The position numbers were made by a program, and so were the translations under genes. Under the pieces are notes generated by a model. That model was given only the letters and a program-made list of their open reading frames with translations, had not been told where the DNA came from and ran no database searches. Shown piece after piece: positions 46,543 to 50,692 of a DNA stretch of 64,000 bases; within the stretch, counting starts at the first letter, position 1; each line of letters starts with the position of its first letter. Origin of the DNA: Dictyostelium discoideum (taxonomy: Eukaryota). The DNA lies in the NCBI GenBank assembly GCA_000004695.1, contig CM000152.2, forward strand, positions 5,120,001-5,184,000. The letters run 5' to 3'.

Positions 46543-47675
46543 CCACCTTATCCATATCAACAACCACCACAACAGCCACAACAACCACCATATCAACAAG
46601 GAGGTTATTATCCACCACCACCAAGTGGTCCAACACAAACAGGATCAACTCCGCCACAACAACCACCATACCAACAAGGAGGTTATTACCCACCACCACC
46701 AACAAGTGGCCCAACACAAACAGGATCAACTCCGCCACAACAACCACAACAACAGCTCCAACAATCACCACATCAACAAGGAGGCTATTATCCACCACCA
46801 CCACCAAGTGGTTCAATACAAGCAGGATCAACTCAACCACAACAACAGCAACAACAACAACAACAACAATCACAACCACCACACCAACAAGGGGGTTATT
46901 ATCCACCACCACCAACAAGTGGCTCAACACAAACAGGATCAACTCCGCCACAACCACATCAACAAGGAGGTTATTATCCACAAAGTGGTTATTATCTGCC
47001 ACCACCACCACCACCACCACATTAACAAGGGGGTTATTATCCACCACCCACACCAACACCACCACCGTCATCACCATCACCCCAGCTTCAAAAGCAAGAA
47101 ATTCCAAATACAGCTTCTCCACCTCTTCCACAACAGCAACAACAAGGAGGATATTACCCACCACCTCAACATGGTTATTATCCTCCTCCTCCTCCTCAAG
47201 GAGGTTATTATCCACCTCCATATGGCTATGATCCATATGGTCCTCCTCAAGGAGGTTATTATCCACCTCCGCCACCATATGGCTATGGTTATTATCCCCC
47301 TCCACCACCATATGGTTATTATCCTCCCCCATCTCAACAACAAACACCACAACAACCACCACAACCACAACAGTTAGATTCCTATGGTGTACCACTCCAA
47401 AATTCTCAACAACAAATCCCATATCCTCCACAACAACAACCACCACAATATGAACAACAACCACAACAACCACCACAACAACCACAACAACCACAACAAC
47501 AACCACAACAACCTCAACAACAACCACAACTACCACAACAACCACAACAACCTCAACAACAACCACTACAACAACCACAACAACCTCAACAACAACCACT
47601 ACAACCTCAACAACAACCTCAACAACAACCTCAACAACAACCTCAACAACAACTACAACAACAACCACCACCACT

Positions 47676-47718
<43 letters not shown>

Positions 47719-47842
47719 CCACAACCACAACAACAACAACCACAACTACAACAACAGCCACAAGAGAATTTAGGTGAATGGAGAAAAAGTATTTCAGAGT
47801 TTGTTAGTCCTGAAAGAGTAATTTTAGAGGACAGTTCAAAGG

Positions 47843-47940
<98 letters not shown>
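46543..47940 (+). repeat. coding-type tandem repeat array (66-nt units encoding QQGGYYPPPP(T)SGPTQTGSTPP), then Pro/Gln-rich and (AAT)31 poly-Asn tract; in frame with and upstream of the Argonaute ORF; contains an in-frame TAA at 47023-47025
   Basis: The frame (position ≡ 1 mod 3) reads GGYYPPPP/PQQ repeats continuously from the gap to 47022 and from 47026 into M47941. The ORF-track ORF 46310-47377 is the out-of-frame reading of the same repeats. Confidence 0.6.
47846..47938 (+). repeat. (AAT)31 microsatellite immediately upstream of, and in frame with, the Argonaute ATG
   Basis: Pure aat run. Confidence 0.9.
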
Positions 47941-47941
<1 letters not shown>

Positions 47942-50692
47942 TGGATTTAAATAATAACAATAGAGACTCAAGGGGTAGAGACGATTGGGATAATAGGTTT
48001 TCTTCAAGAGATTCACACCATAGGGATAGAGACAATAGAGATAATAGAGATTCTTATTCAAGTAGGGATAGAGAAAGAGATAGAGATTTTTACTTAAGTA
48101 AGGATAGGGATAGGGATAGGGATAGAGACAGGGATAGGGATAGGGATAGAGATAGAGATAGGGATAGAGATTATAGAGGAAGTTATAGAGATAATAGAGA
48201 GAAAAGCGGTGGTAGTTTGGGTTCATCAAGTAATAGTGTCCCACAGAGTTTATCACAATCATCATCGTCAATACCTCAAGCATCATCGTCTTCTAATATC
48301 ACCACTCCCTCCACAACCACCACCACTACAAACACAAACACAAACTCAAACTTTTTATCATCACCATCATCATCATCATTATCATCATCATCATTACCAG
48401 CAGCATCATTATCCTCTGGTTCATTGAGTGCTGGTATTGGGTTTTCAAAAAGAGTTAAAGATGAAGATGTTGTCGATATTAGTGATGGTAATAAAAAATT
48501 AACCGTTCCAGTAAGAAGAGGTGTTACTGTTAAATTATCATCTAATCAATTCCCATTAAATATTGATAAATCAGTTAAAATTTATTTATATTGTGTTATT
48601 TTTACTGTAAGTCATTTAAAAATAATATATTAAATGAAATATTCTAATTTTTTTTTTTTTTTTTTTTTTTTATTTTTTTAAAAGCCACAAATTTATAATA
48701 GAGTTAGAAAATATGATTTAGTATCAGGATTACAAGGTGCAATTGGACCAAATATTTATGATGGAACATCATCATTGTATTGTTTAAAAGAGATGACAGA
48801 GGATCAAATATTTCAATTTGATAGTGTAAATATTAGATTGAGTTTTATTAAGGTATTGGATCCACCATCTACCATTCAATTTTATAATGTTTTCATGAAG
48901 AAGATTATGAAGTTATTAGGATTTTCAATTGTTGGTAGACAATATTTTAATTCACGTCTATCAGAAAAGATTGAAAGTAGTAATTTAAATGTTTGGCCAG
49001 GTTTCTTTACATCGATTGGTAAGATTAGCGCAGGTACATCATTATTGGCAGATATGTCAAGAAAAGTCATTAGAAAGGAATCGGTTCTATCCTTAATTCA
49101 ATCACTAAGTAGAAGAGGTAGTCGAGCAGATATTGAAAGAGAATTGGTTGGTTCAATCATCATTACATTGTATAATAATAAAACCTATAGAATCAATTCT
49201 ATCGAATGGAATAAATCACCAAGATCCAATTTCAGGACCGATGCTAATGGTGAAATCACCTTTGAAAATTACTATCGTATAACTTATGATCGTTCAGTAA
49301 CAGATTATGAACAGCCATTACTCATATCACGTTGTAAAGGTAGAAAAGAGGATGTATACTTAATACCAGAGTTTTGTAATCTCACTGGTATCTCTAATGA
49401 AGATAGAAAAAATGGTCAAAAGATGAAAGAGATTAATGAACGTACCGTCGTTGAACCAAGAAAGAGATTCTATGGATTGAAAGAATTTATTAAATCCATT
49501 AATTCAACCACTGAAATTAGGGAGGAGGCTTCTCGTTGGGGTATTTCTTTTCAAAATTCATTGGAGGTCAATGGTAATCAGTTCCCAACACCTCATAAGG
49601 AGAATTTTTACTTGGAAAAAATTAAATCAAATTGGGGCATTATTGCAGCAGAGAGTTTGCAAAAGGAGTTGGGTACCTTTGAAAAGGAGATGAAAAACTA
49701 TTGCTTGGAACGTCCATTCGTCCAACTTGTAAAGAATAATCCACGTGAATTCTCTAGTGAAATTAGAGCAATGGTAGATAGTAAGAAAATAGATTTCGTT
49801 GTTTGCATCATTCCAGCCGTACAAACTGAAGCTTATAATGCCATCAAGAGAGCGTCCTTATTGGAGTGTAAGATCGTTTCTCAAGTTATTACTGCCAGAA
49901 CTATTACTAGTGGTAAATTCTATGCAATTCTTCCAAAGATTATGAGTCAAATTAATACTAAAATAGGTAGACCACCTTGGAAATTATCTCAATCAATCGA
50001 AGATACATACTCAAAAGGATGCAAGATCAGTTGCTGCTTTCTGTGCCACCACTAATAATGCCTTTACAAACTGTTATGTTAGTGCAACCATTCAAAAACA
50101 ATCTTCAAAAGAAGTTATCAATTCATTAGGTGCATCAATGGGTAATGCATTAAAGGCTTATCATCATATTAATAGTCGTTTACCAGAGGTTGTTGTTGTC
50201 TATAGAGATGGTATTTCCGATGGTATGATTGATCAAGTTAATAAATACGAAGTTCAAGCAATTAGAGAATCATTCTCAATGTTACCATCATCAATGGGTG
50301 CAAAACCAAAACTTATTTACATTATCGTTAAAAAGAATACTCATATTCGTTTCTTTGATTTAGGTGGTAATTACAGTAATCCAACTCAAGGTGTTGTTGT
50401 TAGTCAAGGCGTAACTAGAGATCATTGGTATGACTTTTTCTTAATCTCTCAAAAAACAACTAAAGGTACAGCAAATCCAACACATTATCATGTTATTCAA
50501 GATGAAACAAATATTCAAGCAGAATCTTTACAACAATTAACCTATAATCTTTGTTATCTCTACTTTAATTTCGATCAAAGTGTATCGGTTCCAAGCGTTT
50601 GTCAATTCGCTCATAAATCTGCATTATTAATAGGTAAATCCTGTAATGCAAATACTCCTGAAGAATTAAGTAATCGTTTATTCTTTTTATAA
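47941..50692 (+). CDS. Argonaute/Piwi-clade protein (agn family): RD/RG-rich N-terminal region, N-domain, PAZ, MID, PIWI; exons 47941-48606, 48685-~50019, then a +1 frame shift into 50018-50692; possibly a pseudogene
   Basis: Intron ACT|GTAAGT(48607)..aaaag|CCA(48685), phase 0, both pieces in the same frame. The PAZ region is GSIIITLYNNKTYRINSIEWNKSP...YLIPEFCNLTGIS. The MID/PIWI region is ..KIGRPPWKL.. then DARSVAAF..VVVYRDGISDGM..DFFLIS..PTHYHVIQDE..RLFFL* (Piwi C-terminal ..FFL end; second Asp and His of the DDH triad present). The reading frame shifts between 50018 and 50040. The GxDVxH first-Asp segment is absent. Confidence 0.7.

Follow-up and report, generated by a model that had tools for sequence, protein, structure and literature searches.

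The agnD gene in a Dictyostelium discoideum reference stretch is most probably a recent null allele of a PIWI-clade Argonaute

We describe the agnD locus in a 64,000-nucleotide (nt) stretch of Dictyostelium discoideum DNA (GenBank assembly GCA_000004695.1, contig CM000152.2, positions 5,120,001 to 5,184,000 of the forward strand), hereafter the window, to which coordinates refer unless stated otherwise. agnD, one of five Piwi-clade Argonaute genes in this species, most probably exists here as a recent null allele. A complex net loss of 41 nt appears to be a real lesion that breaks the reading frame in the PIWI domain, an in-frame TAA further upstream is most likely an error in the sequence, and an intact form of the gene would be the ancestral one. 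The pseudogene status of agnD as such is already known and is here rediscovered: Edelbroek et al. (2024, PMC11014262) state that "AgnD appears to be a pseudogene", with reference to the genome paper and dictyBase. Neither that paper nor Schmith et al. (2015, PMC4559204) contains a statement on the nature of the lesion, on a TAA that is not reproducible, or on an intact allele in other isolates. The new element is modest: an intact, apparently constrained allele occurs in other sequenced material, and the loss is likely specific to the laboratory lineage.

Results

The window is AT-rich DNA of the Dictyostelium type (24.7% G+C). We assign the locus on the basis of primer agnD-01, a 27-nt oligonucleotide used for quantitative reverse-transcription PCR (qRT-PCR; PMC4559204), which has an exact and unique match at 50162-50188 on the forward strand and thus points to D. 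discoideum agnD. The original prediction, made from the bare sequence, had recognized an Argonaute/Piwi gene at this site; Pfam matches to PAZ and Piwi and the PIWI-clade identity of the nearest solved structures bear this out. The reverse primer of the same study, agnD-02 (GTACCAATCCACCCAATGGTACAATGG), finds no match in the window or in either of the two other agnD sequences considered below. Its reverse complement overlaps primer agnE-04, and it probably represents agnE sequence or a labelling slip.

The lesion became apparent from alignments to an intact allele, to a protein from D. firmibasis and to solved PIWI structures, which took the place of a comparison among paralogues. A word-indexed protein search returned only the intact allele, the D. 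firmibasis protein and animal PIWIs. The intact allele (P0001) is an uninterrupted open reading frame (ORF) of 646 amino acids (aa) that is 98% identical to the window translation and reads ...SIEGIPKDTMVVGIDVGHNTQKDARS... and ...KLSQSIEGIPKDTMVVGIDVGHNTQKDARSVAAF.... It is encoded on Logan contigs of about 2.2 kb from at least five runs (SRR26869257, SRR26869258, SRR26869266, SRR26869267 and SRR28564543). Because these contigs begin inside the intron, they must be genomic. They align to window positions 48654-50833, and within the coding region they differ from the window by four single bases (49854, 50071, 50152 and 50608) and, at 50000-50007, by 41 additional bases in the contigs. In the 3' flank, the two are separated by a few small insertions or deletions.

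At the junction, the intact allele reads TCG AG[G GGT ATT CCA AAG] GAT ACA [ATG GTA GTC GGT ATC GAT GTT GGT CAT AA]T ACT, where brackets mark the bases that are lost. The 41 bases can be aligned as gaps of 11, 1 and 29 nt without mismatch or, at the cost of three mismatches, as a single 41-nt gap. A single clean deletion of 41 nt and a double deletion of 12 and 29 nt were both considered and rejected, since each requires an additional mismatch or gap; the event is better described as a complex indel. It removes 14 residues (GIPK and MVVGIDVGHN) including the first catalytic aspartate, and causes a +1 frameshift. The old frame then runs into a first stop, a TAA at 50053-50055, directly followed by a second TAA at 50056-50058, and the predicted product of the laboratory lineage measures 1206 aa as compared to 1432 aa for the intact protein. 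The new frame entered by the shift stays open to a stop at 50690-50692. Hence the uninterrupted frame through the PIWI domain that characterizes P0001 is lacking in the window. The +1 change and the old-frame stop at 50053 had both been noticed before, with the shift placed around 50018-50040, somewhat downstream of its actual position. Likewise, the suspected absence of the GxDVxH block is confirmed by the alignment, although the loss amounts to 14 residues rather than about 12.

The same damage is visible in the match to the Piwi profile. The intact allele scores 246.6 bits (E 4.5e-73) and the D. firmibasis protein 242.8 bits, whereas the window translation reaches 216.5 bits after artificial correction of the frame. 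The real ORF in the window covers only positions 1-70 of the 302 profile positions.

Which of the two forms came first can be judged from the D. firmibasis homologue RB653_010018 (P0002, annotated as "Argonaut-like protein"). This intact 1086-aa protein shares 53% identity with AgnD and contains the long form of the segment (GIPNYTMIVGIDVGHNT), which argues that the short form in the window is derived by deletion. Best-hit similarity and intron position are the only two grounds on which we regard the genes as putative orthologues; a tblastx comparison of the flanks detected no synteny within +/-10 kb. The four substitutions between the window and the intact allele are all synonymous transitions (chance P ~0.013, given that 34% of the possible exon transitions are synonymous), and no further lesions occur over 4.3 kb, although four differences provide few sites from which to judge constraint. 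As far as these sequences can tell, the loss is recent, derived and specific to one lineage. The term "recent pseudogene", one of the options in the original prediction, is therefore apt for the deletion, which is shared by two assemblies while the intact allele is nearly identical.

The second of these assemblies was found by looking up a neighbouring 652-aa ORF, which led to the chromosome-scale sequence CM142509.1 (6.43 Mb) of GCA_054883475.1. This assembly carries the identical short form (-41 nt) together with the same four haplotype-defining bases as the window. It appears to have been derived anew, because it fills a gap in the window and differs from it in several homopolymer lengths. 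Recurrence of the short form in a re-derived assembly argues that the deletion belongs to the strain lineage and is not an assembly error; the 41-nt loss is, on this evidence, real, and mis-assembly, which had been offered as one explanation, is not supported. The homopolymer differences fall at 45530-45775 and at 50925 (among them nine additional A at 45579-45587 and three additional T at 45773-45775), and three substitutions (46298, 46426 and 46430) lie just before the gap. Such differences are typical of assembly quality in AT-rich intergenic DNA and at contig ends.

The in-frame TAA at 47023-47025 fared differently. It lies in the frame that starts at 46543, within a unit of the form CCA-CAT-xAA-CAA-GGx-GGT-TAT-TAT, whose sister units near 46768 and 46952 read CAT-CAA-CAA. 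The stop inside the GGYYPPPP array and the CAT-CAA-CAA sister units are thus present as first described. GCA_054883475.1 has CAA (Gln) instead. This difference belongs to a cluster of four substitutions at 46984-47068 (window > GCA_054883475.1: 46984 A>G, 46986 T>G, 47023 T>C and 47068 T>C), and each time the version in GCA_054883475.1 brings the repeat back to its consensus (QSGYY to QGGYY, H*Q to HQQ, PPSSP to PPPSP). These four are the only substitutions between the two assemblies from 46542 to 51170; the other ~4.5 kb contain none. The cluster spans 85 bp and is located about 450-530 bp from the edge of the 100-N gap. Four consensus-restoring changes clustered near a gap are more readily explained by a low-quality read tail than by four independent mutations, and we regard the TAA as a probable base-call artefact near a contig end of the window assembly. 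The two independent coding lesions that had been proposed are therefore probably reduced to one, as only the deletion recurs when the same haplotype is assembled independently. Sequence error, also among the options raised at the outset, is the one that most likely holds for the TAA, given that a sequence free of this codon exists in GCA_054883475.1.

The strongest competing explanation concerns this codon only: the TAA might be a mutation private to the clone that was sequenced, or a polymorphism of the repeat array, that exists besides the deletion. The codon is after all present in the window, and the second assembly may represent another sub-strain. A genuine mutation would nevertheless have to account for four substitutions that are confined to 85 bp close to a contig end and that all depart from the repeat consensus in the window alone, a pattern that fits a low-quality read tail better. 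We consider a genuine TAA unlikely.

Several observations weigh against the view that agnD is a young null allele with a single real lesion. If the old reference was used to build or polish GCA_054883475.1, this assembly would not be fully independent at the deletion. De novo assemblies from Nanopore and Illumina reads have been reported for the laboratory strain AX2-214 and for wild isolates (Holland et al. 2025, PMC12745789). We infer, on circumstantial grounds, that GCA_054883475.1 may be the AX2-214 assembly of that study. The short-form ORFs of the window (420 aa, 48793-50055; 184 aa, 50138-50692) had no match among Logan runs; these missing matches are uninformative, because the neighbouring 652-aa gene is absent from Logan too. 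The TAA could be a real private mutation of the clone, as discussed above. Finally, Schmith et al. describe the Argonautes of D. discoideum as members of the PIWI subfamily with an intact Asp-Glu-Asp-His (DEDH) tetrad in all five, and they could measure agnD mRNA in AX2 by qRT-PCR (PMC4559204). Their description of the tetrad conflicts with the apparent pseudogene of PMC11014262. The sequence of the laboratory lineage sides with the latter, and by our alignment the statement that DEDH is intact is incorrect for the agnD allele in the window.

Some of the same facts could be taken to mean that both lesions are artefacts of assembly or sequencing and that the strain really has an intact agnD. 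The TAA fails to recur, there is a 99.8% identical intact allele with only synonymous coding differences, the window assembly is gapped inside the gene, and a published claim of five intact tetrads is on record. This account founders on GCA_054883475.1, which corrects the TAA and fills the gap, yet keeps the same 41-nt loss and the same four haplotype bases. A complex indel of 41 nt is also atypical for a base-calling error. We judge this explanation to be very unlikely.

Slightly less probable still is the idea of agnD as an old paralogue, decaying throughout the species, that has collected the TAA and the deletion independently. The window does show two lesions, a heavily decayed relic adjoins the gene, and the flanks are not syntenic with D. 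firmibasis. A decaying gene, however, would hardly retain a 4.3-kb ORF that is otherwise fully open, with a TAA that is absent from the second assembly, an intact allele that differs only at synonymous positions, and a Piwi score of that allele (246.6 bits) that equals the score of the intact D. firmibasis protein (242.8 bits).

The least probable explanation, which we practically dismiss, holds that agnD functions as a non-slicing Argonaute with its frame restored by splicing or recoding: agnD mRNA is measurable, slicer-dead PIWIs such as Drosophila Piwi (with a DVDK tetrad, PMC7015924) exist, and GCA_054883475.1 carries a 1410-aa gene call over 4336 nt (478-4813 of the piece compared), but the restoration needs an "intron" of 25 nt at 49946-49970 that replaces conserved residues, the RNase H fold of the bridged protein would still lack a core beta-strand, at a cost of 30 bits in Piwi score, and the slicer-dead PIWIs that are known differ by tetrad substitutions rather than by a deleted strand.

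The 25-nt segment emerged from an exhaustive search of GT..AG pairs, in which the sole open solution of 1410 aa combined it with a 78-nt intron. Genuine introns in Dictyostelium are not known to be anywhere near as short as 25 nt. As a candidate for restoring the frame, this micro-intron was rejected also because it would swap the conserved SQINTKIG RPPWKLSQSIE for out-of-frame residues. The 1410-aa model, which gives agnD the appearance of an intact gene, is probably an artefact of annotation. With no plausible intron to restore it, the frame ends 11 codons past the lesion, and the "slicer-dead variant" suggested in the original prediction is not supported.

An assembly gap of 100 N at 46442-46541 lies inside the 5' end of agnD, directly before the frame opening at 46543, and hides the start codon. 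GCA_054883475.1 fills it with 474 bp (4628-5102, reverse strand, of the piece compared) that comprise promoter-proximal AT-rich DNA, an ATG and the first ~62 codons (MYEPNERKRSNQEDPVDDQQSKRFRPENPDPRALYNPYQ..., MYEPNERKRSNQEDPVDDQQSKRFRPE...). The 3' part of exon 1 (46542-48606, forward strand) encodes a low-complexity N-terminal extension, in a frame that reads PPYPYQQPP...GGYYPPPP..., and stops where the conserved N/L1 region sets in. The extension combines GGYYPPPP repeats rich in Q, P and Y with a run of Asn, repeated RD dipeptides and a stretch rich in Ser and Thr; a pure (AAT)n tract at 47848-47940 accounts for ~33 Asn, and a (GAT AGR)n tract at 48100-48170 for the RD repeat. The single intron (GT..AG, 78 nt, phase 0) spans 48607-48684 on the forward strand and leaves the reading frame unchanged; the D. 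firmibasis homologue is interrupted at this site too. Exon 2 (48685-50692, forward strand, normal stop codon 50690-50692) encodes L1-PAZ-L2-MID-PIWI and is the part broken by the frameshift. Within it, Pfam places PAZ (PF02170) at 49102-49446 (forward strand, E 2e-26 to 9e-27) and Piwi (PF02171) at 49795-50641 (forward strand, E 6e-64 on the frame-corrected translation). The reconstructed intact AgnD of 1432 aa thus consists of ~690 aa of low-complexity N-terminus followed by N/L1-PAZ-L2-MID-PIWI.

A search of PDB sequences placed this protein with the PIWI clade: EfPiwi, MIWI, MILI and Siwi matched at 1e-115 to 6e-101 (EfPiwi 1e-115, Siwi 6e-101), human Ago2 far more weakly at ~3e-31. The catalytic motifs of AgnD align with those of EfPiwi as MVVGIDVGHN with MVVGIDVYHD, SKEVINSL with SQELIHEL, VYRDGISDG with VFRDGVGEG, and CQFAHKSA with CKYAHKLA. 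Catalytic tetrads are documented as D597/E637/D669/H807 in human Ago2 and D670/E708/D740/H874 in Siwi (PMC7015924). In the intact allele we map the tetrad to D415/E454/D486/H621 by motifs and offsets rather than by residue-level alignment; the offset to Siwi is nearly constant (253-255), and H621 lies 25 residues from the C-terminus, like H874 of Siwi. This mapping contradicts an earlier placement of the second Asp in DFFLIS and of the His in PTHYHV, and puts them in YRDG and QFAHK instead. The window allele has no complete DEDH tetrad. The first Asp (GIDVGH) is deleted, and the codons for the Glu finger (SKEVIN, 50111-50113), the second catalytic Asp (YRDGIS, 50207-50209) and the catalytic His (QFAHKS, 50612-50614), all on the forward strand, are out of frame and past the stop.

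About 0.8 kb downstream of the agnD stop, the window contains a degenerate relic of the gene at 51485-52092 on the forward strand, which corresponds to the partial duplicate that had been suspected there. It opens with an N-terminus-like ORF (MTYLCDKKREVEGDIDEEKGSTKRFKSQ... and DKKREVEGDIDEEKGSTKRFK; agnD has ERKRSNQEDPVDDQQSKRFR) and continues with a stretch rich in Q, Y and P. Further on come a frame shift and an internal TAA, and finally 56 aa of PAZ (51925-52092) and a stop. The PAZ piece is 57% identical to AgnD residues 896-951, with 76.6% nucleotide identity over 141 nt. It resembles the D. firmibasis protein more (77.5% over 40 aa) than does the corresponding segment of agnD itself (62%). 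The relic copy is far more decayed than agnD. The only tRNA gene predicted by ARAGORN in the window, tRNA-Arg(TCT) at 6146-6218 on the reverse strand, is unrelated to agnD.

Discussion

We propose the following course of events. The complex 41-nt net loss would have removed GIPK and the beta-strand that bears the first Asp of the DEDH tetrad, and would have shifted the frame. Translation from the ATG hidden in the gap would run through the N-terminus, PAZ and MID, and would end at 50053 after 11 wrong residues. The resulting product of ~1206 aa would lack the last ~230 residues, among them the three other tetrad residues (Glu, Asp and His) and the C-terminal portion of the PIWI fold, which contributes to holding the 5' end of the guide. 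From this architecture we infer that the truncated product cannot act as an Argonaute. The intact form would be ancestral and still segregating in close relatives, which would make the loss a young event rather than a stage in the history of a long-decaying paralogue.

What this means for the species depends on how widely the intact form is distributed. With confidence that is about evenly balanced, we suggest that agnD is a presence/absence polymorphism: null in the laboratory lineage (presumably NC4-derived AX4/AX2), and a complete, selectively maintained DEDH Argonaute in other isolates. If this is true, the RNA interference and transposon-control phenotypes recorded in laboratory strains are those of a four-Argonaute background. 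Laboratory strains may then lack an Argonaute that wild strains possibly still use, which matters for comparisons of silencing and small RNAs between the two. The reference model of agnD can be corrected, as one of its lesions is probably an error and the gene start lies in an unfilled gap. The 1410-aa model of the newer assembly should not be taken as evidence for an intact agnD.

Comparison with known Argonautes helps to define what has been lost. Intact AgnD aligns end to end, from PAZ through MID to PIWI, with the solved PIWI structures (EfPiwi 7KX7, MIWI/MILI and Siwi 5GUH). It shares with them the motifs MVVGIDV.H, S.E.I, (Y/F)RDG and YAHK/FAHK of the DEDH tetrad and a C-terminus that reads ...RLFFL. 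Unlike these proteins, AgnD carries a low-complexity N-terminal extension of ~690 aa, and unlike animal PIWIs it belongs to an amoebozoan without a known piRNA pathway, whose published small RNAs measure ~21 nt. RB653_010018 from D. firmibasis resembles AgnD in its intron position and its Q/P/Y-rich N-terminus and has an intact DEDH region of its own, but is shorter (1086 aa as compared to ~1432 aa). The allele in the window departs from all solved PIWIs in that the strand with the first Asp is deleted and the frame is broken. The slicer-inactive Piwi from Drosophila, with its DVDK tetrad (PMC7015924), likewise does without a canonical DEDH. Slicer-inactive Argonautes, however, keep the full fold and differ by point substitutions, whereas the window allele combines a deleted strand with a truncated ORF. 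Judged by this comparison of sequences, the agnD allele in the window is most probably null, as opposed to a variant that would only bind.

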